Assembly (NCBI GenBank): GCA_031263945.1
Contig: JAISEW010000014.1
Location: 1-34,695 of the forward strand
Reading direction: 5' to 3'
DNA length: 34,695 nt
Origin: Gracilibacteraceae bacterium
GTDB taxonomy: Bacteria > Bacillota > Desulfitobacteriia > Desulfitobacteriales > Syntrophobotulaceae
Numbering within the stretch: position 1 is the first letter of the stretch; every line of letters starts with the position of its first letter. The notes under the pieces were generated by a model. That model searched no databases and was not told where the DNA came from. It saw only the letters and a program-made list of their open reading frames with translations. Positions 10,201 to 34,695 of the stretch are shown piece after piece. A program made the translations under genes and the position numbers.

Positions 10201-10208
10201 TTTTTACC

Positions 10209-10946
10209 TCAAATGACCCCTTCCACTCGCAGCGCCGCAATCAACTGCTCGCAGGCAGTTCGGGGATCGCCGCCGTCGATGACGCGCGCGGGCGGCGTGT
10301 CGGGAAACCTGGTTCCTTGCGTCTGGACCCTGTATGCGATTGCCGCGTCCAGCAGATCGGCCGCCGCAATTTTTTCCGCCGGTTTTTTGCGCGCGGCCAG
10401 CACTTCCTTCATGCCCGGCACGTTTTTCTCCGCGCGGCTGGCCGTCACGGCCAGCACGACGGGACCCGCGGCGGCCAGCACCTGGATGGCGGCGCCCAGG
10501 CGGCGCGTCACCCGCAGTTCGCCCTGCTCAGAGCAGGCCGCCGCCGTGACTCCGGCCACGGCCGGCCAGCCCAGACGTCCCGCCAAGGCGGAAATCACCG
10601 CGTAGTCCCAGGCGGAATCGCCGATGAGTACCGCGCCGACACCCGCCATACGCCGCACCGCCTCAGCCAGCGCTGCGCCTGTCGCCGCGCTGTCCGCTTC
10701 GCCCGGCGTGCCGGTAACGACCACGGTGCGCGCCGCCCCTCTGGCCGCGGCCCAAGCCGTATCGCCGTCGCCTATCGTCAATCCGACGACCTCATCACCC
10801 GCGGCCAGAGCGACGGCAATTTCCATCGCCGCCGGGTCGTCGTCACTGGCCGCCAGCTTCACGCCCGGCCAACTGACGGCCGCGTCCGCCGATACCCTGG
10901 CGTCCAGCGGATTTCTCGCCCACTTGAAAACAACGACGATTTTCAT
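10209..10946 (-). CDS. etfB: Electron transfer flavoprotein beta subunit (EtfB/FixA)
   Basis: ORF 10209..11105 trimmed to the ATG at 10946 (MKIVVVFKW...), which is preceded by GGAGG. The EtfB-like N-terminus and its position next to etfA support the call. Confidence 0.85.
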   Translation of the reverse strand: MKIVVVFKWARNPLDARVSADAAVSWPGVKLAASDDDPAAMEIAVALAAGDEVVGLTIGDGDTAWAAARGAARTVVVTGTPGEADSAATGAALAEAVRRMAGVGAVLIGDSAWDYAVISALAGRLGWPAVAGVTAAACSEQGELRVTRRLGAAIQVLAAAGPVVLAVTASRAEKNVPGMKEVLAARKKPAEKIAAADLLDAAIAYRVQTQGTRFPDTPPARVIDGGDPRTACEQLIAALRVEGVI

Positions 10947-10956
10947 GCTGCCTCCG

Positions 10957-11718
10957 TTAGTGGGCGGTCTGGCCCGCGTCCACCGAATAGACCGAGCCCG
11001 TGATAAACGAGGCCAGCGGCGACGCCAGGAAAAGCACGAGACCGGCGATTTCGTTCGGTTCGGCGACGCGATGTACCGCGTTGAACGACTTGACCATCTC
11101 CGCAAACTCCGGATCCGCCAGCCAGCGGGCGGTCATTTCGGTTTCGGTGAGGCCGGGCGCGATGCAGTTAATGCGGACATTATGCTTGGCGTACTCGATG
11201 GCGGCACCTTTTGTCAGTCCCGCCGCGCCGTGTTTGGCGGCTACATAAGGCGCCATGCCCGGATCGGCGACCAAGCTGACGACGGAACCGCAGTTGATGA
11301 TGGAACCGCCGCCGTTTTTCAGCATCGCGGGGATCTGGTACTTCATGCACAGAAACACGCCCTTGAGATCGACGGCGATGATTTTGTCAAAATCCTCTTC
11401 CGTCTGTTCGGCCAAATCCGCCGTCACGGGCAGGAGACCGGAATTGTTGAACGCGGCGTCGAGACGTCCAAAGCTTTGCAATGTGGTTTGCACGATGTTT
11501 TGCACATCGGCGGCGACGCTGACGTCCCCTTTGATAAAGATCGCTTCGCCGCCGGCTTGCCTGATGAGCGCCATCGTTTCGTCGGCGTGGCTGCGCCCGG
11601 CGATGGCCACTTTGGCGCCCTGCTCGGCAAAAGCCACGGCGGCAGCCTGGCCGATGCCGGAACGTCCGCCTGTGATGAGTACCGCTTTGCCGGTGAAATC
11701 CAACAGGTTTTTGCCCAA
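10957..11718 (-). CDS. SDR family oxidoreductase (first gene of the ETF/reductase operon)
   Basis: 253 aa, TTG start preceded by AAGGAGAGG. It has the Rossmann motif ITGGRSGIG and the Y-x3-K motif (YVAAK). Confidence 0.9.
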   Translation of the reverse strand: MGKNLLDFTGKAVLITGGRSGIGQAAAVAFAEQGAKVAIAGRSHADETMALIRQAGGEAIFIKGDVSVAADVQNIVQTTLQSFGRLDAAFNNSGLLPVTADLAEQTEEDFDKIIAVDLKGVFLCMKYQIPAMLKNGGGSIINCGSVVSLVADPGMAPYVAAKHGAAGLTKGAAIEYAKHNVRINCIAPGLTETEMTARWLADPEFAEMVKSFNAVHRVAEPNEIAGLVLFLASPLASFITGSVYSVDAGQTAH

Positions 11719-11745
11719 GGTATCCTCTCCTTTCGACTTGTGGTT

Positions 11746-11761
11746 TTGTAAAAATTTACAA
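11746..11761. promoter_or_regulatory. 16-bp palindrome TTGTAAAAATTTACAA just upstream of the operon RBS (candidate operator or LuxR box)
   Basis: Read directly. The arms are TTGTAAA/TTTACAA. It lies 28-43 nt upstream of the SDR start codon, in the divergent intergenic region shared with the LuxR gene. Confidence 0.4.
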
Positions 11762-11846
11762 CGGTGTTACATGCTTCAATCATAGAGAAAGCTGCGCCTG
11801 CACACAATCGCCCGGGACGGTGATATCAAAATACCACTTTCGAGTG

Positions 11847-20105: not shown

Positions 20106-20411
20106 ACCCGCCACCTCCGCAATTATAGTAACACGCGCCGATTAAAGCGCGGCGGAACGTAGATTAAGCGTCTGTTAAACCTGGATGAAAAAACTGAGAC
20201 GGATTTTAATGTTCCGGTGCCGGCGACCCAGCCAGCGTTTCCCTATGGTAAAGCCGGCGTTCAAGAAGCCGAACGGGGCGCGCACATAATCGGGACCGAG
20301 CGCAGCGCGGCGCCGGCGCCCACCTACAGGAATCCCATGACAAATGTCGCGAGCAGATACTGATCACAGATTACCGGATAAAGGTAAACAGAAAACCCTT
20401 AAAAGTTGTAA

Positions 20412-20466
20412 ACTCCCCACTCCCAACTCTCAACTCTCAACTCTCAACTCTCCACTCCCCCACTCT
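20412..20466. repeat. Degenerate heptanucleotide tandem repeat with four perfect CAACTCT units (20424-20451) and C/T-rich degenerate flanks
   Basis: Read directly: ...CCCACTCC CAACTCT CAACTCT CAACTCT CAACTCT CCACTCC CCCACTC. It ends where the predicted -35 begins. Confidence 0.9.
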
Positions 20467-20494
20467 TGCCCGTCTCCGTTTTTTCCGCTATAAT
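20466..20494 (+). promoter_or_regulatory. Candidate promoter of the 757-aa gene
   Basis: TTGCCC (20466-20471), a 17-nt spacer, then TATAAT (20489-20494), 35 nt upstream of the ATG at 20529. Confidence 0.5.
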
Positions 20495-20528
20495 AATCTA
20501 GGATACCTCTAAAGAAAGCATTGGCGGT

Positions 20529-22802
20529 ATGGGGGTGAAAATCACGTTAAATCATGAAGCGGTTTTTCTGGGTTTGAATGAGCGTCATCCGGCCCAGACC
20601 TTGTTTTTCCGCTTTATCGGCACGGACGAGGACGGGAAAACAGAGGCTTTTCTGACGCGCTTCCGCGATCTGGCCGCCGAAGGGGGGCTGCTGTTCACAG
20701 AGCCGATCCCGGAACCGGGGGCAGGCGAGACGGCCCGTCTGGAGGAGGCGACCGGCGATTTCACTCGCGTCACGGAGCAAACGGTCGTCGCGCATGTGAC
20801 CGTCTGGCTGGCCCAGTTATGGCAGTCGCAGCAAGCGGAAACAGCCAAAGCGGTATGGTCGCTCGTCAAATTCCTCAAAGGACGCGGCACGCGCGAGGAA
20901 ACGCTGCGCTCCGTGTATACAGGTCTGCTCTGCCGCCTCTCGGTCCCCTGCGGTCGTGCCCTGCGCGCGATGGGCAGCGGTGATCCGCCCAAGGTGATGT
21001 ACGAGGGGGAGATCACGGCCCGGGAACTCTATCTGCTTTATACGCTTTCGCTGGCCGGCTGCGACGTGGTATACGCGCATCATAACGAGGAAAGTTATTT
21101 GGCCGCCGACCCGATCGGCCGTTTTTCCTCGCTCGTGCGCGGCTCGGTCTTCACGCCCCGGCCTGCCCGGACGGCCGCGGAGCGGGAAACGTCCGCCGGC
21201 TCGCCGGATCTTCCGGCGCCGGCGGCGGACGCGGCGACGGCGCGGGCGGACGCGGCGCGCACCGCCGGTCTCGTCTGCGTGAACTCCTGGCTTGAGGGCG
21301 GCGACGTTTGGAGCGCGGTCCTGGAAAACGCCGCCCGGCGCGGCGGCCGCGGCCCGGAACGGCGCAATATTTTTTCTCTTTGTTTCGGCGCCGACGAGCG
21401 GGAAGTCTACCGCAACCGCCTTTTCTTCCTGCGGGAAAAACTGCGCGCCTCTGGAAAAAAATGGATGTTAATGACTTTGCGCACCCCGCCCCCGACCGAA
21501 AAAGAAGCGGCGGTTTTTCAGGGAGCGGTCACGCCGGAGGAATTGGCCGCGCGCCTGACCGCCGGTGATGAACTCACGACTCTTCTGGCCCGGCGGGCGC
21601 TGCTCACGCTGCTGGACGAACGGGCGGCGGCGGAAACGGACGGCGGGACGGAAGCGGGCTTGCCGCCGCGGCTGGCCGCCTGGCTCGCGCGTTACGCGGC
21701 GGAGCTGTTCGCCGGAGAAGCGGCGGCGGACGCCCCGCCGATTTTCCTCTATTACGGCCCCATCACGGCGGATGAGACGGATTTGCTTTGGCTGCTGAAA
21801 GAAATCGGCGCCGACGTTCTATATTTCTCGCCGGATAAGGCAGACAGCGAAGTGTTTCACCGCCGCCTGGGGCCGCCGCTCGGGGCGCTGGAGACGGAAC
21901 TGCCGGGCGATTTGCCCTGGGAGCCTTTTCCGGAGGAAGAAATACGTCTGCGGGCGGAAACAACGGCCTACAACGCTTCCCGCGAATTGGACCGCGTTTT
22001 GTACAGCGGTTCCGGCCTTTACCGCCGCCGGCAATTCACCCGCAGCCGGCCGGTGACTCTCAAGACCACCTATGACGAGATCCCCCTGCTCTGGCCGGTC
22101 GAGGCCAAGTACCGCCCCAATTTCCAGGCGGAGGACGGCGTGGCGACGGTGCCGAATATTTTCGCTAAGATCTGCGGCGTGGAAAAAGGCCTGACCGAGA
22201 TGTACTGGGATCGGATCGCCGCCCTGACGACACAGCAGACCTGTCTGGTCACGCGTCTGCCGTTTTTTGCCCGCGCGGGCGCGGCGGAGACGAAGGAGGC
22301 GCGGAATTTCTGGCAGGACGATCAGCTTTCTCCGGACGTGAAAAAAAGTCCCTACTACCGTTACGAGCATCTGTCGCCTGACACGCAGGAACTGTGGCTG
22401 GAAAAAACGCGGGAACTCCTGCGCGGCGATCTGCTGCGTCTGACGGAGGAAGAAAAATTTCAGGCCCTCGCGGTCTTGCTCGCCCTGGAACCGGAGATCC
22501 TGCGCCTAGTGCAGAATTTCGACTATACGGGCGAAGTGCCCAAACTGCTCATAGTCTCGGCGACGGACGCCCTTTTCGCCTTGGAGGACTGCGTTCACGC
22601 CGCTTTTCTCAATATGATCGGCTTTGACGTTGTGATCTTCACGCCGACCGGCAACCGGGACATCGAGACTTATATCGACGCGCGGCATTTTGAGACCCAT
22701 CAGATCGGCGAATATATGCCCGGCCTGAGCCCGCCCGATTTGCGCCGGCGCCGGCTGGGCCTGAAGCCGCAGTCGTGGCTGGGCAAGTTGTTAGGGCGTT
22801 AA
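20529..22802 (+). CDS. Large cytoplasmic protein of unknown function with three internal repeats (possibly YceG-like 'biosynthetic module' family)
   Basis: 757-aa ORF with no TM segments. A three-fold module is visible: PPKVMYEGEITARELYLLYTLSLAGCDVVY / PPIFLYYGPITADETDLLWLLKEIGADVLYF / VPKLLIVSATDALFALEDCVHAAFLNMIGFDVVIF. There is an Ala/Arg/Pro low-complexity linker. The family name is from memory only. Confidence 0.75.
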   Translation: MGVKITLNHEAVFLGLNERHPAQTLFFRFIGTDEDGKTEAFLTRFRDLAAEGGLLFTEPIPEPGAGETARLEEATGDFTRVTEQTVVAHVTVWLAQLWQSQQAETAKAVWSLVKFLKGRGTREETLRSVYTGLLCRLSVPCGRALRAMGSGDPPKVMYEGEITARELYLLYTLSLAGCDVVYAHHNEESYLAADPIGRFSSLVRGSVFTPRPARTAAERETSAGSPDLPAPAADAATARADAARTAGLVCVNSWLEGGDVWSAVLENAARRGGRGPERRNIFSLCFGADEREVYRNRLFFLREKLRASGKKWMLMTLRTPPPTEKEAAVFQGAVTPEELAARLTAGDELTTLLARRALLTLLDERAAAETDGGTEAGLPPRLAAWLARYAAELFAGEAAADAPPIFLYYGPITADETDLLWLLKEIGADVLYFSPDKADSEVFHRRLGPPLGALETELPGDLPWEPFPEEEIRLRAETTAYNASRELDRVLYSGSGLYRRRQFTRSRPVTLKTTYDEIPLLWPVEAKYRPNFQAEDGVATVPNIFAKICGVEKGLTEMYWDRIAALTTQQTCLVTRLPFFARAGAAETKEARNFWQDDQLSPDVKKSPYYRYEHLSPDTQELWLEKTRELLRGDLLRLTEEEKFQALAVLLALEPEILRLVQNFDYTGEVPKLLIVSATDALFALEDCVHAAFLNMIGFDVVIFTPTGNRDIETYIDARHFETHQIGEYMPGLSPPDLRRRRLGLKPQSWLGKLLGR

Positions 22803-22830
22803 GGCGGTTTTGGCAAAGCGGATCCGAGTA

Positions 22831-22854
22831 TATGGAATAATATGGAATAATATG
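22831..22854. promoter_or_regulatory. Tandem 10-nt repeat TATGGAATAA x2.4 immediately upstream of argF (possible ArgR/AhrC operator)
   Basis: Read directly at 22831-22840, 22841-22850 and a partial copy at 22851-22854. The AT-rich TGGAATAAT cores loosely resemble ARG-box half-sites (TGAATAA). Confidence 0.35.
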
Positions 22855-22869
22855 TAAAAGGTGGTCAAA

Positions 22870-23823
22870 ATGGCGGATTTAAGCGCAAAACTGGCGGGGC
22901 GCGACTTTCTGACCTTGCAGGATTTCACGGCGGCGGAAATCAGCGTCTTTATCGCGACGGCCCGCGATCTCAAAGCCCGGCAGAAAGCCGGAACGCCGCA
23001 TCATTTGCTCGCGGGCAAAACTTTGGCGATGATATTCACCAAATCATCGACCCGGACGCGCGTCGCTTTTGAGGTCGGCATTTATCAACTGGGGGGAACG
23101 GCTCTTTTTCTCAGCGAACGGGATATCCAGCTGGGACGGGGCGAATCCGTCGCCGACACGGCCCGCGTCCTCTCCCGCATGGTGGACGGCGTCATGATCC
23201 GCACATTCAGTCACGCGGAAGTGGAAGAACTGGCGCGGCACGCGGCGGTCCCCGTCATCAACGGCCTGACGGACTATCTGCACCCGACTCAGGTCCTGGC
23301 TGATCTGATGACGATCGAGGAACATAAGGGCCGTCTGGCCGGCCTGAAACTGGCTTATATCGGCGACGGCGGTAATGTGGCCCACTCTTTGCTCATCGGC
23401 TGCAGCAAAATGGGTATGGATATCACTTTGGCCTGTCCGGCGGCGTATGAGCCGCGGGAGGAAATACTGCGGGCGGCGCTCGCCAACGGCGCGGAGAGCG
23501 GCAGCCGCGTGCGCCTGGTGCGTGATCCGCTGGAGGCGGCGCGGGATGCCGACGCCCTTTACACCGACGTCTGGGCCAGCATGGGGCAGGAAGGCGAATC
23601 AGCGGAAAGGCGCGCCGCTTTTAAGGGTTATTGCCTGGACGACGCGGCGCTGGCGGCGGCGCGGCCGGACGTTATAGTTTTGCATTGCCTGCCTGCGCAT
23701 AAAGGCGAAGAAATAACGGAAGCGGTTTTTGAAGGCCCGCGCTCCGTGGTGTTCGACGAGGCGGAAAACCGTCTGCACGCTCATAAAGCCGTCATGGCCC
23801 TTTTGATGGGAAACACTGATTAA
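22870..23823 (+). CDS. argF: Ornithine carbamoyltransferase
   Basis: STRTR carbamoyl-phosphate motif ([13 protein letters not shown]), HPTQ motif and HCLPA motif. The ATG at 22870 has AAAGGTGG upstream; the ORF track GTG start is 22861. Confidence 0.95.
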
Positions 23824-23852
23824 ACTATTTAACTAATACGAGGAGAGCAAAT

Positions 23853-25070
23853 ATGGGTAAAAAGGTTGTTTTGGCATACTCCGGCGGTTTAGACACTTCC
23901 GTGATCATCCCCTGGCTGAAGGAAAATTATGGTTATGAAGTTATCGCCATGTCCGCCGATCTGGGACAGGGCGAGGAACTGGAGCCGCTGCGGGCCAAAG
24001 CCCTGCAAAGCGGCGCGGCCAAACTCTACATCGAGGACTTGCGCGAGGAATTTGTCACCGATTATATTTTCCCGACGATCAGGGCCGGCGCCGTATATGA
24101 GGGGGAATACCTGCTCGGCACGGCTTTTGCCCGTCCGCTCATCGCCAAACGGCTGGTGGAGATCGCCCGCCGCGAAGGCGCGGTGGCGGTAGCGCACGGC
24201 GCGACCGGCAAAGGCAATGACCAGGTGCGTTTTGAACTGTCCGTAAAAGCTCTGGATCCGGAGCTGGCAATCATCGCCCCCTGGCGGCTGTGGGACATCC
24301 GCTCGCGCGAGGACGCGATCGACTACGCGGCGGCGCGGGGCATCCCCGTGCCCGTGACCAAAGAAAGCCCGTACAGTCTGGACCGCAATATCTGGCACCT
24401 CAGCCACGAGGGGGGCGATCTGGAAAACCCGTGGAACGCGCCGCGCGACAGCATGTACGCTTTGACGACGCCGCCGCGCCAGGCCCCGGACGAACCGGCC
24501 TATGTGGAAATCGAGTTCACCCGGGGCGACCCGGTGGCCGTCAACGGCGAACAAATGGCGCCTTTGGCCTTGCTGACCAAATTGAACGAAATAGGCGGCG
24601 CTCATGGCGTCGGCATCGTGGACATCGTGGAAAACCGGCTTGTGGGCATGAAATCCCGCGGCGTATACGAAACGCCCGGCGGCGCGATCTTGGTCGCGGC
24701 TCACCGAGCGCTGGAGCGGCTGACGCTGGACCGGACCACGCAGCATTTCAAGGAACAGGCAGCCCTGCGCTACGCGGAACTGGTTTACGACGGTCTATGG
24801 TTTTCCCCGCTGCGCGAGGCCCTGGACGCTTTTGTCGCCGTGACGCAGCGCCAGGTCACAGGAGTGGCGCGCCTGCAGTTATATAAGGGCAATTGCCGCC
24901 CGGCCGGGACGCGATCGCCTTACTCCCTGTACAATGAGGAATTTGTCACCTTCGGCGCCGACGAGGTCTATAATCAGAAGGACGCGGAAGGATTCATCAA
25001 TCTGTTCGGTTTGCCGCTCAAAGTGCGGGCCCTGATGGAAAAGCAGGCCTCCGTTATTCGTTCAAATTAA
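23853..25070 (+). CDS. argG: Argininosuccinate synthase
   Basis: N-terminal PP-loop AYSGGLDTS, plus [13 protein letters not shown] and the rest of the classic ArgG pattern. 405 aa. The RBS is GAGGAG. Confidence 0.95.
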
Positions 25071-25133
25071 GACTTGCGGCCAGAACGCCGTCATATCTTC
25101 AAGTTTCCTTACTCGGCGAGGACATACACCGCC

Positions 25134-26987
25134 TCAATCCGCGCCTTGATACAGCTGGTAATACCGCCCTTTGGCCGCCAGCAGCGACTCGTGGTCGCCG
25201 CGCTCGATCACGCGGCCCTGCTCCATCACCATGATCGCTTTGGCGTTTTGCACGGTGGAGAGGCGGTGGGCGATCACAAAAACCGTGCGCCCTTCCATCA
25301 GGCTGTCCATGCCTTTTTGCACGATAGCCTCCGTGCGCGTGTCGATGCTGGAAGTCGCCTCGTCCAGAATCATCACCGGCGGGCTCAGCACCGCGGCCCT
25401 GGCGATGGAGAGCAGCTGGCGCTGCCCCTGGGAAAGACTGCCGCCGTCGCCGTCGATCACCGTGTCATAACCTTCCGGCAGGCGCTCGATAAAATCATGG
25501 GCGTTCGCCAGCCGCGCGGCCGCGACCACTTCCTCGTCCGTGGCGTCCAGCCGCCCGTAGCGGATGTTTTCCCAGACCGATCCCGTAAAAAGGCGCGTGT
25601 CCTGCAGCACCATGCCCAGCGAGCGGCGGAGGGCGCTTTTGCTGATCTCGCCGATCGGCACTCCGTCAAAGAGGACGACGCCTTCCGTTATTTCATAAAA
25701 ACGGTTCAACAGATTGGTGACCGTCGTTTTACCGGCGCCGGTCGCCCCGACGAAAGCTATCTTCTGGCCGGGTTTCGCGTAAAGAGAAATGTCGCGCAGC
25801 ACGGGTTTGTCCTCGGTATAGCCAAAATTGACCCCCCGGAACTCCACCTGGCCCCGCGCCTCGACATATTCCGCGCCCGTCTCTCCCGGCCGGCGCCAGG
25901 CCCAGCGCGCCGCGGCCGCCTGGCTGGGGGCCAGGATCCCGCCCTTTTCCTCCACTGCCGCCAGCGTCACGACGCCGTCGTCCGTCTCCGTCTCTTCATC
26001 CAATAATTGGAAAATTCTCTCCGCCCCGGCCAACGCCATGACGACGGAGTTGATCTGCATGGAGATCTGGGCGATCGGCATGGCAAAACTGCGGGACAGG
26101 GAAAGAAAGGCCCCGATCGCCCCCAGCGTCACCCCGCCGACGCCGGCCGCGGCCAGAGCGCCGCCCAGCACCGCGATCAGCACATATTGCAGATTGCCGA
26201 TATTGGCCATGATGGGCATGAGGATATTGGCAAACCGGTTGGCCGACGCCGCCTGCCGGGCCAGAGCGTCGTTTTTGGCGTCGAAAACAGCCTTGACCTC
26301 CTCCTCGCGGCAGAAGACCTTCACCACTTTTTGCCCGTTGATCATCTCCTCGATGTAGCCGTTGACTTCGCCGAGCATTTTTTGCTGCGCCATAAAATGC
26401 CTGGCCGAACGACCGCCCACCTGCCGCACCACGAGCAGCATCAGGCCCACGCAGGCAAAAACGAGCAGCGTCAGCGGCGGATTGATCAGCAGCATGGCGC
26501 AAGTGACCGCCACGATCGTGATGGCGGAGGAAAAAGCCTGGGGGATACTCTGGGAGATCATCTGCTGCAAAGTGTCCACATCGTTGGTGTAGCGGCTCAT
26601 CAGGTCGCCGAACGAGTTGCGGTCAAAAAAACGCACGGGCAAGGACTGCATATGGGCGAACATGTCGTCCCGGACTTTTTTCAGCACGCTCTGCGTGATC
26701 GTGACCATCGCCCGGTTGTAAAACAAGGTCGCGGCGATCCCGGCGGCGTAAACCAAAGCCAGCCAGGCCACCGCTCTGGCCAGGGCGCTGAATTCCGGCC
26801 TCTCGCTCAAAAGCAGCGGCGTGATGTAGTCGTCCACCAGAGTTTCGATAAAACCGGAACCGGCCACGCCGGCCACGGAACTGACGATGATGCAGAGAAA
26901 AACGAAGGCCAAAAGCGCCCGGTAGCGGCCGATATAGCGCAAAAGGCGCAGCGCGGTCTTCAGGGGTTCAGAGTTCTTCTTCGTCAA
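25134..26987 (-). CDS. ABC exporter subunit (fused TMD-NBD), canonical-site half of a heterodimer
   Basis: 617 aa, TTG start with AAGGGGG upstream. Walker A is GATGAGKTT, Walker B ILDEATS (Glu present), H-loop IAHRLST. The signature is non-canonical, LSQGQ. Confidence 0.9.
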   Translation of the reverse strand: MTKKNSEPLKTALRLLRYIGRYRALLAFVFLCIIVSSVAGVAGSGFIETLVDDYITPLLLSERPEFSALARAVAWLALVYAAGIAATLFYNRAMVTITQSVLKKVRDDMFAHMQSLPVRFFDRNSFGDLMSRYTNDVDTLQQMISQSIPQAFSSAITIVAVTCAMLLINPPLTLLVFACVGLMLLVVRQVGGRSARHFMAQQKMLGEVNGYIEEMINGQKVVKVFCREEEVKAVFDAKNDALARQAASANRFANILMPIMANIGNLQYVLIAVLGGALAAAGVGGVTLGAIGAFLSLSRSFAMPIAQISMQINSVVMALAGAERIFQLLDEETETDDGVVTLAAVEEKGGILAPSQAAAARWAWRRPGETGAEYVEARGQVEFRGVNFGYTEDKPVLRDISLYAKPGQKIAFVGATGAGKTTVTNLLNRFYEITEGVVLFDGVPIGEISKSALRRSLGMVLQDTRLFTGSVWENIRYGRLDATDEEVVAAARLANAHDFIERLPEGYDTVIDGDGGSLSQGQRQLLSIARAAVLSPPVMILDEATSSIDTRTEAIVQKGMDSLMEGRTVFVIAHRLSTVQNAKAIMVMEQGRVIERGDHESLLAAKGRYYQLYQGAD

Positions 26988-28716
26988 AATCGCCCCCTTT
27001 CCGCTGCGAATGATAAACTTCCCGGTAAAGCTCGCTGCCGCGCATGAGTTCGGCGTGGGGGCCGACCGCCTGCACCCGGCCTCCGTCCAGCACGACGATC
27101 TTGTCGGCGTCCTGCACGGAAGCGACGCGCTGGGCGATGATCAGCTTGGTCATGGCCGGCAGTTCCTCGCGGAGCGCCCGGCGCAACGCGGCGTCTGTCC
27201 GCGTGTCCACGGCGCTGGTCGAATCGTCCAGGATCAGGATCTTCGGTTTTTTCAGCAGGGCGCGGGCGATGCACAGCCGCTGTTTCTGCCCGCCGGAAAT
27301 ATTGGCGCCGCCCTGCTCGATCACGGAGTCATAGCCGTCGGGCAGAGCGCGGATAAAAGCGTCGGCCTGGGCCAAGCGGCAGGCCCGGACCATTTCTTCC
27401 TCGCCGGCGTCTTCATTGCCCCAGCGCAGATTGTCTTTGACCGTACCGGAAAAAAGCTCGTTTTTCTGCAGCACCACCGCGACCTCGTCGCGCAAGACCC
27501 GCAGATCGTACTCGCGCACGTCGCGGCCGCCCACCTCCACCGCGCCGCCCGTCACGTCGTATAAGCGGGAAATAAGCTGGATCAGGCTGGTCTTGCCGCT
27601 GCCGGTGCCGCCGAGTATGCCGACGGTCTCCCCCGGGGCCACGGACAAGTCAATCCCGTCCAGACACGGTTTGCCGCCCGCGCCGCCGTAGCTGAAACTG
27701 GCGCCGCGAAAAGCCAGCGAGCCGTCCGGGACGACCGTCGCCGCCCCCGGTTCGCTGGTCAGGTCAGATTCCGCCGCCAGCACTGCCGCGATCCTCTCGG
27801 CGGAAGCGCGGGAGATGACGATCATGACAAAAAGCATCGACAGCATCATCAGGCTGAACAGGATCTGCATGGCGTAGGTAAACATGCTCATGAGCTGGCC
27901 GGTGGTCATGGCGCCGCCCACGATCAGCCGCGCCCCGATCCAGGCGATCAGCAGCATGCAGATGTACATGCAGAACTGCATCAGCGGCATGGCCAGAGCC
28001 ATCCTTTTCCCGGCCTTGGACATATCGGCGAAAATGGACTCAGAAACGCGCCCAAATTTTTCCTTCTCATAATCTTCGCGCACGAAGGATTTGACCACCC
28101 GGATGCCGCGCACGTTTTCCCGCACGATCTTGTTCAGGTGGTCGTAAGTGGTGAAAACCCGCATGAATATGGGGTGGACATGCCGCAGGATCAAGTAGAC
28201 GGCCAGCGCCAGCACCGGCACCGCCGCCAGGAAAACCAGCGAAAGCGTGGCCTGGACGCGAAAAGCCATGGCAAAGGCCAGCGTCAGCATCAAAGGGCTG
28301 CGCACCGCCATGCGCAGCAGCATCTGGAAGGCCATTTGCACATTCGTGACGTCGGAGGTGAGACGCGTGACCAGACTTTCTGTGGTAAATTTATCCAGCT
28401 GGCGGAAGGAAAAAGTCTGGATATTATAAAACATGGCCCGCCGAAGGTTGCGGGCAAACCCGGCGGAGGCGGAGGCGGCAAAAGAACCGCTCAGCACGCC
28501 GCAGAGCAGCGCCAGCGCCGCGCAGACAGTCAGGACAGCGCCCATTTTCCAAATATAATCGGTCTGTCCGCCGTCTATCCCGATGTCGATCAGACCCGCC
28601 ATCAAAAAAGGGATGACGACCTCCATGACGACCTCGCCGCCCATGAACAGCGGCGAAAGCCAGGCGTCCCGCTTATATTGCCCAATACAGCGGAGCAGAC
28701 GTTTTATCAATCCCAT
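26968..28716 (-). CDS. ABC exporter subunit (fused TMD-NBD), degenerate-site half of a heterodimer
   Basis: 582 aa. Walker A is GGTGSGKTS and the signature ISGGQ. Walker B is ILDDSTS (Asp replaces the catalytic Glu) and the H-loop is IAQRVAS (Gln replaces His). It overlaps the partner gene by 20 nt. Confidence 0.9.
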   Translation of the reverse strand: MGLIKRLLRCIGQYKRDAWLSPLFMGGEVVMEVVIPFLMAGLIDIGIDGGQTDYIWKMGAVLTVCAALALLCGVLSGSFAASASAGFARNLRRAMFYNIQTFSFRQLDKFTTESLVTRLTSDVTNVQMAFQMLLRMAVRSPLMLTLAFAMAFRVQATLSLVFLAAVPVLALAVYLILRHVHPIFMRVFTTYDHLNKIVRENVRGIRVVKSFVREDYEKEKFGRVSESIFADMSKAGKRMALAMPLMQFCMYICMLLIAWIGARLIVGGAMTTGQLMSMFTYAMQILFSLMMLSMLFVMIVISRASAERIAAVLAAESDLTSEPGAATVVPDGSLAFRGASFSYGGAGGKPCLDGIDLSVAPGETVGILGGTGSGKTSLIQLISRLYDVTGGAVEVGGRDVREYDLRVLRDEVAVVLQKNELFSGTVKDNLRWGNEDAGEEEMVRACRLAQADAFIRALPDGYDSVIEQGGANISGGQKQRLCIARALLKKPKILILDDSTSAVDTRTDAALRRALREELPAMTKLIIAQRVASVQDADKIVVLDGGRVQAVGPHAELMRGSELYREVYHSQRKGGDFDEEEL

Positions 28717-28783
28717 GGCTCACCTCGCCGCTTTCTCGCTCTTAAAGAAATACCCGCCCGGTTGGTCGGTCAGGCAACTTCAT

Positions 28784-28812
28784 ATTGTAGCCTGTTTTAG
28801 CGGAGGCGTCAA
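28784..28812 (-). promoter_or_regulatory. Promoter of the ABC exporter operon
   Basis: The minus strand reads TTGACG (28812..28807), a 17-nt spacer, then TACAAT (28789..28784), about 70 nt upstream of the ATG at 28716. Confidence 0.65.
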
Positions 28813-28937
28813 GCAATTTTTATAAAAGGGATATTTAGGTAAAACTGGGTTGTGTTGATAGTTGACGTTGCCCGCGGGACGCGGCATAAACGCGATAGGC
28901 GCGATAGCCAGGTTGGTTTGACGGGCCGTCGAAAAAT

Positions 28938-28966
28938 TTGACAAAAAAAATACCGCCATGTATAAT
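28938..28966 (+). promoter_or_regulatory. Perfect-consensus sigma-70/SigA promoter at the left edge of the low-GC island
   Basis: TTGACA (28938-28943), a 17-nt spacer, then TATAAT (28961-28966) with TG immediately upstream of the -10. It faces the GIY-YIG/DGQHR/PAPS-reductase operon, about 230 nt upstream of its first ATG. Confidence 0.7.
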
Positions 28967-29194
28967 CAAGATACAATAGCTATTTGACCTCGCCGCGAAA
29001 TGCAACTTCGGTTTAACAAATCTTATCGTAATTGAATCCGCACATACACAACAGCAGGTTATTGCCCCCGAAAACATAATCGCCGAGCTGGGCACGCAAC
29101 CAAATGCCAAAGACGTTTTATACTTACGGATACATTGACAGAAGCACGATCGATATTGATGAAATCATGGATAAGGCCAGAAGGAGGATGAGCG

Positions 29195-29713
29195 ATGGGA
29201 GAAATTGACCTTGTTGGCGCCAATATCGCCCTGTCAAGTATTCAATTTATACTAAACACTACTTTGTGGGATAGCTTTAATCCGAAGGTTATGAGCATTA
29301 TCTCACAGCCGCAGTCCTGGCGCGAAGTAAAACTGCTTGCTCCCGATGGAAAAAGTAATCCGCAGCTTCGTACAATCCCAAACGACAAAGGCGGCATATA
29401 TTTGATTCTGGCCAAACCAAACATTTTGCCTGAATCGTGCCTGTACTTAATGTACATTGGACGCGCTCATATAACGGCAGATCACAATTTAAGAAAACGC
29501 TGTTCGCAATATCCCACGGAAAAAGAACGCCCTAAGATAAAGCGACTGATTGAGCAATGGGGGCGATATTTATATGTCAGATACCTCCCGTTAGACGGCA
29601 ATGACATAATAGACGTTGTCGAAGACGAACTTATCAATATAATCCTGCCTCCTTTCAATGACAGGATACCAAATAAAAAAATAAGCGCTGCGGTCAAAGC
29701 GTTTGCCATGTAA
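29195..29713 (+). CDS. GIY-YIG domain nuclease-like protein
   Basis: 172 aa with AGGAGG 7 nt upstream. Motifs in order: GGIYLILAK (GIY), LMYIGRA (YIG), LRKR (conserved Arg region), EDELINIILPPFND (catalytic Glu ... Asn). Confidence 0.75.
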   Translation: MGEIDLVGANIALSSIQFILNTTLWDSFNPKVMSIISQPQSWREVKLLAPDGKSNPQLRTIPNDKGGIYLILAKPNILPESCLYLMYIGRAHITADHNLRKRCSQYPTEKERPKIKRLIEQWGRYLYVRYLPLDGNDIIDVVEDELINIILPPFNDRIPNKKISAAVKAFAM

Positions 29714-29726
29714 AGGGGTGTGAAAT

Positions 29727-30998
29727 ATGAAAATACCGGCCATACGCGCTAAAGTTGGAATATGGGTTTACTATGTTTCAACACTGACTTACGCGCAGGT
29801 TAAAGAACATGTTAAAATGGTGGACAAGGAACTCCATAAATCGGCTGTTCTCAGTGAAATGCTGCAGCGGAGCATAACAAACAACTATAAACAAATTGCC
29901 GCCTATATCATGCAGCAGGAGGAGCGTTTTTTCAATTCTCTGGTGCTGGCTGTATATGACGGCGACCCGCAATGGCATGAAATCCGCTTGGATTATGGCG
30001 ACGACGAAGAATACTACGATATCGGGCTGCTTGAGTTAACGGGCGAAGAAAAAATCTTTCCTGTGGACGGGCAGCACCGCGTTGAGGGCATTAAAAAAGT
30101 TCTCCGCGAATCTGATCAGTTTAACGAAGAACGTATTCCGGTGATTTTTATCGGTCACAGAAACGACGACGACGGCATGAAACGCGCGAGAAGACTGTTC
30201 AGCACTCTGAACCGTTACGCAAAACCGGTTTCCCAAAGAGATATCATCGCCCTTGACGAAGACGATTCTGTAGCCATCGCTTCGCGCGAGCTGATTGAAA
30301 ATCATCCGTTATTTGAAAACGAGCGGATATTGGATTCTAAGACCAAGGCTATTCCCGAAAACAATAAAAAAGCGTTTACAACGATCATCACTTTTTATGA
30401 GTGTAATTATGAGTTGATGCATCTTTTCCTAGAGTCCAGGACGGTGAAAGATTCTGACGGAAGGAAAATGCGCGGGCGCTCAAAGGCAAGAGAGTATATC
30501 CGATTCAGGCCGGATCAGCCGGAGCTTGACGGATTTATCAGCCTGTGCGTTGATTTTTGGAATGCCGTTTCCTCTGAAATTTCCTGCGTTCGCGAGTATC
30601 TGGCCGCGGCTCCCGCCGCCGAACGCTTCCGTAACAAGGTTGACGGGGGCTTATTGCCGTTTCGGCCCGCCGCCTTGATTCCTCTCGTTAAGGCGGTCGT
30701 TCATATCCATAAAAAAACCGGAGAATCATTTAATGAAGTGCTTCGAAAAATTAATACACTGCCTTTAAAAATATCTGACAATATTTGGGCCGGAATCCTT
30801 TGGGATAAAAATAACCAGAAAATGATCATGAATCACCAAAAGGTTGTTGAGCTTTGTCTTGTTCTTCTCTATGATCCCGCGTTATCATCAGAAAAAGAAA
30901 AGCAACATTTGGTGGATGGATATGCTTCCGCAACTCAAACGCGCAAAGAAGAGGCTGAAAGCGCGTTGGGTATCTGCGTAACGAAAAGTGATACCTGA
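29727..30998 (+). CDS. DGQHR-domain protein (DndB-like, ParB/Srx fold)
   Basis: 423 aa. It has the literal DGQHR motif in FPVDGQHRVEGI, the downstream RRLFSTLNRYAKPVSQRDIIALDEDD motif as in DndB, and the N-terminus IPAIRAKVGIWVYYVSTLTYAQV typical of the family. Confidence 0.8.
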   Translation: MKIPAIRAKVGIWVYYVSTLTYAQVKEHVKMVDKELHKSAVLSEMLQRSITNNYKQIAAYIMQQEERFFNSLVLAVYDGDPQWHEIRLDYGDDEEYYDIGLLELTGEEKIFPVDGQHRVEGIKKVLRESDQFNEERIPVIFIGHRNDDDGMKRARRLFSTLNRYAKPVSQRDIIALDEDDSVAIASRELIENHPLFENERILDSKTKAIPENNKKAFTTIITFYECNYELMHLFLESRTVKDSDGRKMRGRSKAREYIRFRPDQPELDGFISLCVDFWNAVSSEISCVREYLAAAPAAERFRNKVDGGLLPFRPAALIPLVKAVVHIHKKTGESFNEVLRKINTLPLKISDNIWAGILWDKNNQKMIMNHQKVVELCLVLLYDPALSSEKEKQHLVDGYASATQTRKEEAESALGICVTKSDT

Positions 30999-31037
30999 GC
31001 AGTTGCGTATTTGATAAACCTGAAAAGAGGATTGACC

Positions 31038-32768
31038 ATGTGGTGCAATAGTTGTCACCGCGAGACGACGAAAGATAAATGCGAACTTTGCGGGACGGAA
31101 ACCGAACGGGAAATCCCTCTTGAAGTTTATTGGTGTTCGACCTGCAGAGTTCCCGTGATTAAATACGTAAGCGCTGTTGACCGTGACGCTTGCCCTGCTT
31201 GCGGTAGGGAGACTGAATATTTATGCGCCGATTTACGCCCCGTGTTCCCGGAGGAACGTCTGCTATTTGAGATAATCCAAGGGAAGCCGCTCGCGCACAT
31301 CAATCATAGCGTTTGGGCATCGAACAACCGTTATTATATAGACGGAAAGCCGCTTGTGATTGGTTCGTCTTTCTATAAGAAACTCTCACCTGACGCGATA
31401 CGGACACAACTTGAAAAATATGCACCCAATAACTGCTATGAAGACTTCGACGCAATGGTTGTGCGCTTTGTCGAGGCGAACAAAGTTCGGCTTGACGAAA
31501 TCGTCAGTGAAGCCCATAGCTTCATAAAAGATACCGCCGCGCAATATCCGAACGAGAGCGTTGTCGTCTCGTTTTCGGGCGGCAAGGATTCTACCGTTAC
31601 AGCGGACTTGGCTATACGCGTTCTCGGTGATCCATGCCTTGTGCATGTCTTTGGGAACACAACGCTGGAGTTCCCTATGACGCTTGATTATGCCGCCCGT
31701 TATCGCAGGGACAATCCAAAAGCTATATTTAAGACCGCCATAAATAACGAACAGGATTTTTATTCCGTCTGTGAAGACATTGGCCCACCCGCGAGAATGT
31801 TACGTTGGTGTTGCTCAATGTTCAAAACGGGACCTATTACGCGCGTATTGAACAGGTTGTACGACGACAGCGGCATATTGTCATTCTACGGCATACGCAA
31901 GTGCGAGTCGCTTTCCCGAAGTCGTTATAACCGCGTGGAAGACAATGCAGAGTCGGTGAAGATTCAAAAGCAGAAAGTCGCCTCGCCGATTTTTCTGTGG
32001 AAAGACATTGACGTGTGGCTGTATATCCTCGGCGAGGGTATAGACTTCAATGACGCTTACCGTATCGGCTATGACCGCGTGGGGTGTTGGTGCTGTCCGA
32101 ATAACAACGCGAGGGCGCAGTTTCTCTCGAAAATCTATATGCCGGTGCAGTTTGATAAGTGGCGCAACTTTCTTGTTGGCTTCGCAAAACGCATCGGCAA
32201 GCCCGATGCGGAGGAGTATATTGACAGCGGCGCGTGGAAAGCGCGGCAGGGAGGCAACGGCGTGGCGGCGGCGCAGGACATTAAAATCCGCTACACGAAT
32301 TGCACGACCGAAGCACACGCGAAAGTTTATCGGCTAAACAAGCCGATTGATAACAGCTTTAGCAATCTTTTTATACCGCTCGGGCGTATTGCGCCCGAAC
32401 TGGGACGAAAACTCATAAATGAGATTATGGTTGTGGATGTGAATACGAACGTGCCGATACTTTCGATACAACCGTTCGCACAGGACGGGTATGACTACGC
32501 TGTCAAAGTCAAGACGCTAAACGTAGCGAGGCACGACGATTTACAGCGAATGGTCGGCTATCAGATAAAAAAGTACAACGCTTGCCGGAAGTGCTTAAAA
32601 TGCGAGTCGCTTTGCCGGCACAGGGCAATTTCTATTGTCGGCGGTGAATACCACATCAGCAATGAGCGGTGCAAGCGGTGCAAAATGTGCGTAACAGCGA
32701 AATACCTTGAGGGCGGTTGCCTGATGGATAAGTATTTGAAAACGAAAACAGGGGCGGCGAGTATATGA
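31038..32768 (+). CDS. PAPS-reductase-family PP-loop ATP pyrophosphatase (DndC/SspD/BrxP-like) fused to an N-terminal double zinc ribbon and a C-terminal 2x[4Fe-4S] ferredoxin-like motif
   Basis: ATG at 31038 (the ORF track begins at 31011). N-terminal CNSC-x9-CELC and CSTC-x17-CPAC. PP-loop VVSFSGGKDST. GCWCCP motif. C-terminal CRKCLKCESLC and CKRCKMC...C. Confidence 0.85.
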   Translation: MWCNSCHRETTKDKCELCGTETEREIPLEVYWCSTCRVPVIKYVSAVDRDACPACGRETEYLCADLRPVFPEERLLFEIIQGKPLAHINHSVWASNNRYYIDGKPLVIGSSFYKKLSPDAIRTQLEKYAPNNCYEDFDAMVVRFVEANKVRLDEIVSEAHSFIKDTAAQYPNESVVVSFSGGKDSTVTADLAIRVLGDPCLVHVFGNTTLEFPMTLDYAARYRRDNPKAIFKTAINNEQDFYSVCEDIGPPARMLRWCCSMFKTGPITRVLNRLYDDSGILSFYGIRKCESLSRSRYNRVEDNAESVKIQKQKVASPIFLWKDIDVWLYILGEGIDFNDAYRIGYDRVGCWCCPNNNARAQFLSKIYMPVQFDKWRNFLVGFAKRIGKPDAEEYIDSGAWKARQGGNGVAAAQDIKIRYTNCTTEAHAKVYRLNKPIDNSFSNLFIPLGRIAPELGRKLINEIMVVDVNTNVPILSIQPFAQDGYDYAVKVKTLNVARHDDLQRMVGYQIKKYNACRKCLKCESLCRHRAISIVGGEYHISNERCKRCKMCVTAKYLEGGCLMDKYLKTKTGAASI

Positions 32769-33655
32769 GCGTTAAATATAGGGCGCACGATACTTTTTTC
32801 ATAAGAAAAGGCTGGCTCAGTAAAGGCGTGAAGAATATCATAGTCGACCCCGCCGTCTTTGTGAGCCGCGACGCGAACCCGATGGATACGCTCGGCATGG
32901 GCGCGAATATGGTTAAGGCTCTCCGCTACTGGTTGCTGGCGGTAGGGCTGACGGAAGAATACAAAGGACTTAATAACCGCAACGAACAAAAGCTTACGCT
33001 TCTCGGCGAAATGGTTCACGAAAACGACCCGTATATGGAGGAACTTGGCACACTGTGGCTTCTGCATTATAGACTTGCCGCGAACAAAGAAGATGCTACG
33101 GCGTGGTATTTTTTCTTTAACGAGTTTCGTTCGCTGGAATTCACGCGTGATGATTTTATAATACAGACAGAGAATTATCTGCGCGAGCTTGACGAAACCG
33201 TAGCAGAGCGGTCGATTGAGGATGATTACAATTGCGTCATCAATACCTATATACCGCGAATCAAACTCAATCCCAAGAAATTCGACCCGGAGGACAACAT
33301 TGACTGTCCGCTCGGTGAGTTGGGCCTGATTGACATTGTGAACAAGAAGGCTAAAGTATATAAGAAAAGTTCGCCGAAGAAAGACACGCTCCACCCACTG
33401 ATTCTGCTTGCCGTTATACTCGACCAAGCAAACGGAGCGCGGGAGGTTCGTATATCAGAGATTCAGACTAACGCTCGCAATGTCGGAAAAGTGTTCAATC
33501 TGGATGTAATCGCGCTGACCGCATTGCTGTACAAATTGGAAATTTTAGGGTTTATTAAGGTGGTGCGGACAGCGGGGCTTGATGTTATAAAAATCGAAAC
33601 CGACCTTGACTTCTATGGGAGCGTTCGCGAATATTACCGCGCTATCAACGGATAG
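32765..33655 (+). CDS. DUF4007-like protein (SspB-like by my recollection)
   Basis: 296 aa. The N-terminus HDTFFIRKGWLSKG matches the remembered DUF4007 signature (tF-x-lR-x-gWL-x-K). An ATGA overlap couples it to the PAPS-reductase gene. Confidence 0.65.
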   Translation: MSVKYRAHDTFFIRKGWLSKGVKNIIVDPAVFVSRDANPMDTLGMGANMVKALRYWLLAVGLTEEYKGLNNRNEQKLTLLGEMVHENDPYMEELGTLWLLHYRLAANKEDATAWYFFFNEFRSLEFTRDDFIIQTENYLRELDETVAERSIEDDYNCVINTYIPRIKLNPKKFDPEDNIDCPLGELGLIDIVNKKAKVYKKSSPKKDTLHPLILLAVILDQANGAREVRISEIQTNARNVGKVFNLDVIALTALLYKLEILGFIKVVRTAGLDVIKIETDLDFYGSVREYYRAING

Positions 33656-33677
33656 GACTGTGAGGTGATAATGGGTT

Positions 33678-34695
33678 ATGCCATTGAATAAAATCAGCGT
33701 TGCTAAGGGATTTCAGACCGCCGTCAACATCGCTTATGACTTAAATAACAATGACAAGGTGCGCGGGTTTATCCCTACGCAGTCGAGTCTTGATATAATT
33801 GAGGATGTGCTGCTCTCTACCGCCGCGAGCGCAACGACTCGCGCCCGTATACTGATTGGCGCGTATGGCAGAGGCAAGTCACACATAGTCCTCGTGCTTT
33901 TGGCGCTCTTGTTCGGCAGAGACAAAGGGCTATTTGCCGCGCTTTTGGAGAAAATGAAGAAGAACAATCCGCCGCTGTATGAGTTTGCGGTTGAGTATCT
34001 GGACAGTGGTCGTCAATTGTTGCCTGTGGTCGTGCGCGGAAGCAGCGCAAGCCTGTCCTCGTCATTTTTGAGCGCGTTGCAACTGACGCTGAATGATGAG
34101 GGCTTATCTGATGTTATGCCCGAAACGCACTTTCAAGCGGCAATCGCAACAATTGAGAGTTGGAAGAAGTCTTACCCTAACACCTACAAGCAGTTGATAA
34201 AGGATTTGCCTTGCTCAATCGGCGACTTCATGTTAGCACTCCGTGAATATGATGTTTTCGCTTATGAGCGATTTGAGAGTATCTACCCGCAATTAACGTC
34301 AGGCAGCGCGTTCAACCCGTTTCTCGGATTTAATATTGCCGAACTTTACGAGAGCGTTACAAAAGGTGTTAAGGCGCGAGGGTACGGTGGCATCATTGTC
34401 GTATATGATGAGTTCAGCAAGTATTTGGAATCAAGTATCGCCACCGCGTCTATCAGCGATATTAAGCTGCTACAGGACTTTGCGGAGAAATGTGACCGCA
34501 GCGGTGAACGGCAAATGCACCTACTTCTTATTTGTCATAAGGACATCGCCAACTACATTGACGGCGGTCTCCCGAAAGAAAAGGTGGACGGTTGGCGCGG
34601 CGTTTCAGGGCGATTTAAGCATATCAACCTCCACAACAACTACACGCAGATGTATGAGATTATTTCGGAGGTTGTAAAAAAAGACTATAAATTTT
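33678..34695 (+). CDS. P-loop ATPase, BrxC/PglY/SspC (DUF499)-like, 5' partial (continues beyond the window)
   Basis: Not in the supplied ORF track. I translated it by hand from the ATG at 33678 (GAGGTG 10 nt upstream) and it stays open for 339 codons to the window end. Walker A is IGAYGRGKSH and Walker B IIVVYDEFSKY. Confidence 0.8.
   Translation, partial: MPLNKISVAKGFQTAVNIAYDLNNNDKVRGFIPTQSSLDIIEDVLLSTAASATTRARILIGAYGRGKSHIVLVLLALLFGRDKGLFAALLEKMKKNNPPLYEFAVEYLDSGRQLLPVVVRGSSASLSSSFLSALQLTLNDEGLSDVMPETHFQAAIATIESWKKSYPNTYKQLIKDLPCSIGDFMLALREYDVFAYERFESIYPQLTSGSAFNPFLGFNIAELYESVTKGVKARGYGGIIVVYDEFSKYLESSIATASISDIKLLQDFAEKCDRSGERQMHLLLICHKDIANYIDGGLPKEKVDGWRGVSGRFKHINLHNNYTQMYEIISEVVKKDYKF

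Follow-up and report, generated by a model that had tools for sequence, protein, structure and literature searches.

What does a nuclease gene do when it stands directly in front of a gene for a DGQHR-domain protein, beside the genes that write phosphorothioate (PT) marks into DNA? The question is raised by contig JAISEW010000014.1 of a Gracilibacteraceae bacterium (assembly GCA_031263945.1), whose whole stretch of 34,695 nucleotides (nt) we analyzed and refer to here as the window. An initial annotation, made from the letters of this stretch, had picked out a small GIY-YIG gene followed 13 nt downstream by a DGQHR gene. The coordinates, the spacer and the motifs were all confirmed, and the pair is laid out as follows:

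29195 to 29713, forward strand: open reading frame (ORF) 1, 172 amino acids (aa), ATG start, whose GIY-YIG (URI) nuclease domain spans residues ~60-157.
29714 to 29726, forward strand: spacer of 13 nt between the ORF1 stop codon TAA (29711-29713) and the ORF2 ATG (29727), holding the ORF2 ribosome-binding site GGGGTG.
29727 to 30998, forward strand: ORF2, 423 aa, a DGQHR-domain protein (DndB-family, ParB/Srx-like).

Our data are best explained if ORF1 and ORF2 make up a two-gene module (a dyad) that is obligate and co-translated and that serves DNA phosphorothioation systems as an accessory. PT-based defence is understood through few effectors, namely DndFGH, SspE, SspFGH, PbeABCD and DndI, and a conserved nuclease-plus-DGQHR dyad would add to it a testable new effector or controller. 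The dyad would also bear on the unsettled role of the DndB family, whose members have been proposed to be repressors, nucleoside triphosphatases (NTPases) or nucleases. The initial annotation named no characterized pair of this kind, and full-text literature searches found no description of the dyad; the papers on bacteriophage exclusion (BREX) type 4 make no mention of a GIY-YIG/URI or DndB-like gene in BREX-4 loci.

The pairing of the two genes was followed through loci gathered by exact-protein look-ups, genome scans, metagenome scans and a search of annotated plasmids. The look-ups together with the genome and metagenome scans yielded 42 non-redundant loci (a narrower-alignment genome scan gave 6 genome loci), and 39 of them have sequence downstream of the nuclease gene. 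At every one of these 39 testable loci the DGQHR gene comes next after the nuclease gene on the same strand, and the same adjacency is found in 3/3 plasmid types, with overlaps of 1-4 nt, for a total of 42/42 testable loci. Across the relatives the spacer between the two genes ranges from -4 to +17 nt. One exception is Desulfallas sp. Bu1-1 (locus L010, 10590-11870), where an opposite-strand, 426-aa transposase-like gene, IS110-like as judged from its sequence alone, splits the dyad with both reading frames intact. Homopolymer frameshifts, which may be sequencing errors, interrupt the DGQHR gene at three loci, and one dyad locus has decayed. Searching in the reverse direction gave the same picture: every DGQHR protein of the dyad clade that was retrieved by its own sequence is encoded downstream of the nuclease gene, unlike the products of two canonical dndB genes and of one solitary DndB-like gene. 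The DGQHR protein (~420 aa) is more conserved than its partner nuclease, and no relative of the dyad was found in viral contigs or GenBank phages.

ORF1 is a GIY-YIG/URI nuclease with an intact predicted active site. Its G67-I68-Y69 (strand 66-73) and Y87-I88-G89 (strand 84-91) motifs lie on two adjacent beta strands and are followed by R102, E143 and N155. The ordered GIY, YIG, R, E and N motifs noted in the initial annotation are thus real and not degenerate: the catalytic residues are nearly invariant, being kept in 224 to 230 of 230 full-length family members (Y69 in 229, Y87 in 230, G89 in 230, R102 in 228, E143 in 227 and N155 in 224). The family consists of stand-alone proteins of ~170 aa that form 262 clusters at 50% identity in an exhaustive search; a word-indexed search with ORF1 returned 124 proteins. 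ORF1 itself has no Pfam match at E<=0.1, and among 36 of its homologues 26 match PF20815 GIY_YIG_2 (best 6.9e-7) and 9 match PF01541. A direct sequence search against PDB gave chance matches only, and the family profile aligns weakly to the UvrC GIY-YIG domain (E=0.17). In the profile alignment with the Bacillus caldotenax UvrC domain (1yd6), R102 stands opposite the R of LKERV, E143 opposite the E of LEMN and N155 opposite the N of PKYN. The AlphaFold model of ORF1 has a predicted local distance difference test (pLDDT) score of 82.2, and the six best Foldseek matches to it in PDB are all UvrC GIY-YIG domains, with a probability of 1.00 and template-modelling (TM) scores of 0.71-0.76 on the target. 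On the uvrC model ORF1 scores 11.6 bits (cut-off 285), and its N-terminal extension of ~60 residues is conserved (W25, W42 and K46) and family-specific. Database labels for its homologues read 'hypothetical', 'GIY-YIG domain-containing' or 'excinuclease subunit'.

ORF2, judged by its domain matches, is a DGQHR/DndB-family protein and not a canonical DndB. It carries FPVDGQHRVEG and matches PF14072 DndB at 1.5e-33 (116.7 bits, cut-off 29.1) and TIGR03187 DGQHR at 102.4 bits (cut-off 58.85). On the DndB equivalog model TIGR03233, by contrast, it reaches 74.1 bits against a cut-off of 328, where canonical DndB reaches 443.6. The signature motifs defined in PMC4619093, a QR pair, the DGQHR pentapeptide and FxxxN, are found at Q47 R48, 114-118 and F158...N162; among 30 homologues Q47, R48, D114, G115, H117, R118, F158 and N162 are invariant, and Q116 is kept in at least 90%. 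The match to PF03235 (DUF262, GmrSD_N) is weak (E=0.022, 15.3 bits, cut-off 33.2), the motif being DGQHR rather than DGQQR, and domain searches gave no HNH or DUF1524 match. A HEPN domain has been reported for the C-terminal half of DndB (PMC3632139), but the HEPN catalytic motif R-x(4-6)-H is absent from this half of ORF2, and no near-invariant His lies beyond residue 144 in the 30 homologues. Neither phmmer, nor a hidden Markov model profile, nor Foldseek with a model of pLDDT 85 returned a usable solved relative, so that the ParB/Srx assignment is drawn from Pfam, TIGRFAM and the literature. Homologues of ORF2 are labelled 'DGQHR domain-containing' or 'DndB' in the databases.

The survey of co-occurrence suggested in the initial annotation places the pair with PT genes at 28 of the 29 dyad loci with enough flank. 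The two genes stay paired in four PT system types and in five phyla, and the groups that carry them are Bacillota, Bacteroidota, Planctomycetota, Spirochaetota and Alphaproteobacteria. The initial annotation had also put the pair at the head of phosphoadenosine phosphosulfate (PAPS)-reductase operons. This holds for the window, where the dyad precedes sspDBC and the PAPS-reductase gene lies at 31011-32768, but the position is not conserved elsewhere. In Ssp-Pbe clusters the order is sspD, sspB, sspC, dyad, cysteine desulfurase, PbeA (8e-245), a small ORF, PbeC (4e-105), a ~172-aa protein and a sigma-70 factor, and in some of these clusters the dyad lies at the tail instead of between sspC and sspA. 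BREX type 4 loci show a ~600-aa protein, the dyad, BrxP (3.7e-248, full-length) and BrxC. At two loci an 815-aa GHKL-like protein precedes the dyad, convergent with sspD-sspC-sspB, and there that protein and the dyad are the only other restriction-partner candidates nearby. On plasmid pROLI83 of Roseobacter litoralis, sspA-B-C-D are followed by the dyad, which thus takes the SspE position. On pTiK1_93 of Rhizobium sp. K1/93 the dyad heads an operon with sspF, sspG and sspH (4e-237, 1e-217 and 0) that converges on sspABCD. On pRspNXC14a of Rhizobium sp. NXC14, the dyad is followed by a methyltransferase gene and dndB-dndC-dndD-dndE, and the canonical DndB scores 444 bits on TIGR03233 versus 63 bits for the dyad protein. 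Among the dyad loci that have Pfam annotation, none contains a gene of the SspE type (PF03235 or PF07510). A related arrangement is seen on the Pseudomonas aeruginosa plasmid ppae01 (NZ_CP133095; L053, 5379-7290), where an HNH endonuclease gene (272 aa) lies directly upstream of a gene for a 363-aa DGQHR protein (TIGR03187, 90 bits) and the pair is convergent with canonical dndBCDE. This pair repeats the two-gene layout of the dyad with a different, non-homologous nuclease.

Other neighbors recur around these dyads. A sigma-70 gene closes the Ssp-Pbe clusters (L001, 17854-19008, with homologues in L007, L009, L010, L012, L016, L017 and L039); it is RpoD-like, and its second-best match is MzaA of the MZA system (4e-41). 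In L016 (3092-4897) a 601-aa Mrr_cat (PF04471) protein is encoded between sspD and sspB of the Ssp-Pbe cluster. The ~600-aa protein that accompanies BREX-4-type dyads (L026, 8162-9997; L019; L021-L025; L031; L015, 11300-13084) has no Pfam family, and its sole match is a short PADLOC PD-T4-3-like stretch. The GHKL-like protein upstream of the dyad in L002 (7526-9973) and L013 (35-2491) is 815-818 aa long, has a weak GHKL ATPase (HATPase_c_3) signal and makes a three-gene unit with the dyad.

Around the dyad itself, the window holds the following features:

28938 to 28966, forward strand: promoter-like site of sigma-70 type (TTGACA-17-TATAAT), matching 12/12 consensus positions; a consensus match only.
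29181 to 29187, forward strand: ribosome-binding site AAGGAGG, 7 nt before the ORF1 ATG, read from the sequence.
31011 to 32768, forward strand: SspD/BrxP-type PAPS reductase (PP-loop), 585 aa; PF01507 2.2e-26, PADLOC BrxP 1.8e-72, SspD 2.3e-9.
32765 to 33655, forward strand: SspB (DUF4007), 296 aa; PF13182 4.6e-81, PADLOC SspB 6.1e-60.
33678 to 34695, forward strand: SspC/BrxC-type ATPase, N-terminal 339 aa, P-loop GAYGRGKSH; PADLOC SspC 5.8e-38; interrupted by the contig end.

The window thus encodes an Ssp-type PT modification module, with the SspD PAPS reductase, SspB DUF4007 and SspC ATPase genes together downstream of ORF2, and no DndD or DndE. The sspB start overlaps the preceding sspD-like stop by 4 nt. 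SspA is missing from the window because the contig ends at 34695, and it is present in relatives. The BrxP that marks BREX type 4 (brxP-brxC-pglZ-brxL), in which PAPS reductase and DUF4007 are fused, is not seen here, as the two are separate genes, and any PglZ or BrxL gene would lie beyond the contig end. The SspD-like protein has four N-terminal CxxC pairs that look zinc-ribbon-like and, toward the C-terminus, a CxxCxxC...CxxCxxC stretch that weakly matches 4Fe-4S ferredoxins; it is listed with a TTG start, and 9 codons further on there is an in-frame ATG. Upstream, the promoter-like site lies ~230 nt before ORF1 and is a candidate promoter of the operon, and the G+C content drops from ~60% to 43-50% near 28.8 kb. 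No Rfam family was found in 28000-34695 at E<=0.1 that would mark a leader RNA, and a tRNA search of the window found none. Repeats between 28700 and 29250 are short and unconvincing, with no convincing palindromic operator among them. Farther away, a strong A-over-T skew at 5-6 kb is explained merely by minus-strand membrane-protein genes.

Sequence comparisons indicate that the window is a recombinant. Contig L015, also from Gracilibacteraceae, is ~94% identical to window positions 20360-29394, and its DGQHR protein is 89% identical to ORF2. The similarity ends at 30985, at the end of the DGQHR gene, and the cargo beyond it in L015 is BREX-4-like rather than Ssp sspDBC. Within this shared stretch, L015 (9777-10004) differs from window positions 29395-29695 by a clean deletion of the whole GIY-YIG domain from ORF1 residue 68 onwards; a 75-aa N-terminal stub remains, as do its stop codon and the DGQHR gene's ribosome-binding site. 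A solo cassette in L005 shares 82.9% DNA identity with the window, restricted to 29169-30961, and the DNA upstream of the dyad is not conserved with it; GGAGGATGAGCGATG is kept at the ORF1 ribosome-binding-site region in both L005 and L015. The last ~40 nt of the 230-nt leader (29155-29194) resemble the 3' end of the coding sequence for the ~600-aa protein found ahead of the dyad in BREX-4-type loci (GAAATCAT.GATAAGGC...), which suggests a remnant of a lost upstream gene. The window dyad is nearest to dyads of BREX-4 loci (72-79% and 80-89% identity), whereas the writer genes have their nearest counterparts in Ssp-Pbe loci (77, 64 and 72% identity) and share just 25-31% identity with BrxP. Against the L001 proteins, the SspD-like protein is 77% identical and the 339-aa SspC-type fragment is 72% identical to its 1209-aa homologue. 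Since the dyad follows one kind of locus and its writers another, the dyad works beside unrelated writers.

What the dyad does lies past domain identity and linkage, and from here on we infer. Tentatively, at a little less than an even chance, we favor the reading that the dyad is a two-polypeptide functional analogue of the PT-sensing proteins SspE and DndI in which a GIY-YIG nuclease replaces the HNH domain. SspE and DndI are PT-stimulated NTPases fused to HNH nickases (PMC11662687, PMC8092258). In the dyad, the DGQHR protein would be the NTP-dependent DNA-binding or PT-reading subunit and would license or restrain the GIY-YIG subunit, which in turn would nick or cut DNA without the host PT mark. 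The dyad could then add a restriction layer compatible with any PT writer present, in the window SspD-SspB-SspC. We favor two subunits of this kind because the predicted active site is intact and is obligately coupled to a ParB/Srx-like protein, because the dyad is independent of any one writer and is placed like SspE or DndI, and because canonical DndB co-exists with it and an HNH-DGQHR pair shares its arrangement. The gene dndI is co-transcribed with dndFGH in a dndFGHI operon (PMC11662687), and the dyad that heads the sspFGH operon on pTiK1_93 parallels it, which supports an effector. The initial annotation had already raised a split SspE analogue; the context now speaks for it (the SspE position on pROLI83, the head of sspFGH on pTiK1_93 and the HNH-DGQHR pair of P. 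aeruginosa), but the proteins themselves do not belong to the SspE family. Of the findings that the initial annotation said would overturn its hypothesis, a degenerate nuclease domain and a pair standing apart from modification genes in other genomes were both looked for, and neither turned up. Taken as a whole, that interpretation is partly supported: it is plausible, and better supported now than when it was made.

Several observations weigh against such a sensor-nuclease pair. The best 150 and 120 relatives of the two proteins include no natural fusion of GIY-YIG and DGQHR domains. The L005 dyad (9975-11765), from a Peptococcaceae metagenome-assembled genome, has no PT gene within 10 kb and forms a 1.8-kb islet of 43% G+C among housekeeping genes. 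(The islet is flanked by a ComM/YifB-like Mg-chelatase gene and by polysaccharide deacetylase, bactofilin and recG genes.) L015 has lost the nuclease domain and kept the DGQHR gene, and the nuclease is therefore dispensable there. The ORF2 model has no solved relative, SspE and DndI included. Most relatives have the dyad embedded in modification genes and already possess a dedicated restriction module (PbeA/PbeC or SspFGH). Moreover, the only characterized DndB is a transcriptional repressor (PMC4507180).

A bolder form of the sensor-nuclease reading strikes us as somewhat unlikely as it stands. The dyad would be a third kind of PT-reading restriction effector, after SspE/DndI and the FGH complexes, in which a DndB-type NTPase gates a separate GIY-YIG nickase and which is writer-agnostic across Ssp, BREX type 4 and Dnd systems. 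Were it true, the DndB family would generally consist of nuclease-controlling sensors and not of transcription factors alone.

Of the alternatives, a regulatory role survives best, and we consider it unlikely. ORF2 would be an NTP-modulated repressor like Salmonella DndB that controls how much PT is written or how strongly the neighboring operon is expressed, and ORF1 would be a separate, stand-alone 'backup suicide' nuclease. The initial annotation had offered a DndB-type regulator as its own alternative, and ORF2 does belong to the DndB family. DndB represses dndBCDE from its own promoter (PMC4507180), and the window pair is promoter-proximal behind a perfect sigma-70 consensus; the syntenic L015 keeps the promoter and the dndB-like gene, with the downstream cargo swapped and the nuclease deleted. 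PMC10853773 has also proposed that URI nucleases bordering Dnd neighborhoods are backup effectors. If the nuclease were independent, however, one would not expect to find it immediately before the DGQHR gene in 42/42 loci, with frames overlapping or nearly so. The dyad is often mid-operon or at the tail, away from a promoter, and the DNA upstream of it in the window (28700-29250) has no convincing operator-like repeats. On pRspNXC14a the dyad stands beside the canonical dndB of dndBCDE, and the dyad protein is therefore not simply that regulator. A purely DndB-type regulatory role is weakened by these findings.

We judge it improbable that the dyad is an accessory of modification, in which a DGQHR NTPase and a GIY-YIG nickase would assist or curb the insertion of sulfur, for instance by opening or nicking the DNA on which SspD/BrxP acts. 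Its placement fits, since most dyads lie among writer genes (between sspC and sspA, immediately ahead of BrxP, or next to sspD on either side), and there is a precedent in DpdB, a DndB-like ATPase needed by DpdA in the 7-deazaguanine system (PMC10164549, PMC12839542). SspB/DUF4007 has been modelled as a triple winged helix-turn-helix DNA binder without a nuclease fold (PMC12839542), which leaves room for a separate nickase. Yet the characterized SspABCD and BrxPC write PT without such genes (PMC12914056, PMC8092258). The pTiK1_93 dyad belongs to the sspFGH operon and not to the sspABCD operon, and one locus has a solo dyad and another lacks the nuclease.

More doubtful still is a PT-independent, Type IV-like module, a GmrSD-style NTPase plus nuclease directed against modified or foreign DNA whose adjacency to PT genes reflects defence-gene clustering only. 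It would suit the solo dyad, a 1.8-kb low-G+C islet among housekeeping genes, as well as the relatedness of DGQHR and DUF262 as ParB/Srx-like domains (PMC4619093) and the weak GmrSD_N match of ORF2 (E=0.022). PT genes at 28/29 sufficiently flanked loci, in four PT system types and five phyla, nevertheless make a linkage much tighter than ordinary defence-island clustering. A selfish cassette spread into PT loci by a homing-endonuclease-like GIY-YIG protein is very improbable: the dyad is a discrete unit (82.9% identical to L005 across 29169-30961 only), with variable positions and a phylogeny decoupled from the adjoining writer genes, but ORF1 lacks an I-TevI-type DNA-binding domain, its partner is constantly a 420-aa DGQHR protein more conserved than the nuclease, the viral and phage collections hold no relative, and neither convincing repeats nor target-site structure were seen at 28700-29250.

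The sensor-nuclease reading that we favor would have practical consequences, as a PT-sensitive GIY-YIG nickase could serve as a useful reagent. Cultured carriers make experiments feasible, namely Roseobacter litoralis B14 (pROLI83), Rhizobium sp. K1/93 (pTi) and Desulfallas sp. Bu1-1.

Compared with known systems, the dyad combines familiar parts in an arrangement of its own. Like DpdB, ORF2 is a DGQHR protein serving a DNA-modification system, but DpdB belongs to another modification chemistry (7-deazaguanine), its partner is a transglycosylase and not a nuclease, and no DpdB match is listed for ORF2. The N-terminal GIY-YIG domain of UvrC is the best structural match of ORF1, with the catalytic Tyr, Tyr, Arg, Glu and Asn aligned; ORF1, however, is a 172-aa stand-alone protein with its own N-terminal extension and without the C-terminal domains of UvrC. 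The URI nucleases of Dnd neighborhoods (PMC10853773) are likewise stand-alone URI genes near PT modification genes, and that survey very probably included the ORF1 family; the text of that paper treats them as boundary-located, independent backup effectors and describes neither an obligate DndB-like pairing nor a presence in Ssp or BREX-4 loci. With the canonical DndB of Salmonella and Streptomyces, ORF2 shares PF14072, the DGQHR, QR and FxxxN motifs and the linkage to PT genes. It differs in being ~60 residues longer, in its equivalog score (74 bits versus a cut-off of 328), in having a GIY-YIG gene upstream, which canonical dndB genes do not, and in not being the first gene of a dndB-dndC-dndD-dndE operon.

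From SspE and DndI the dyad is set apart by being two polypeptides, DGQHR/DndB-family rather than DUF262 and GIY-YIG rather than HNH. Its proteins match the solved SspE and DndI chains neither in sequence nor in fold; they are not members of the SspE family, and ORF2 lacks the C-terminal HNH/DUF1524 that also distinguishes GmrSD. The likeness lies in the design: a ParB/Srx-like NTPase with a D-G-Q-x-R motif goes with a nuclease, and both serve as accessories of PT writers. It extends to placement, as the dyad stands in the place of sspE after sspABCD on pROLI83 and, like dndI (PMC11662687), shares an operon with an FGH-type restriction module on pTiK1_93.

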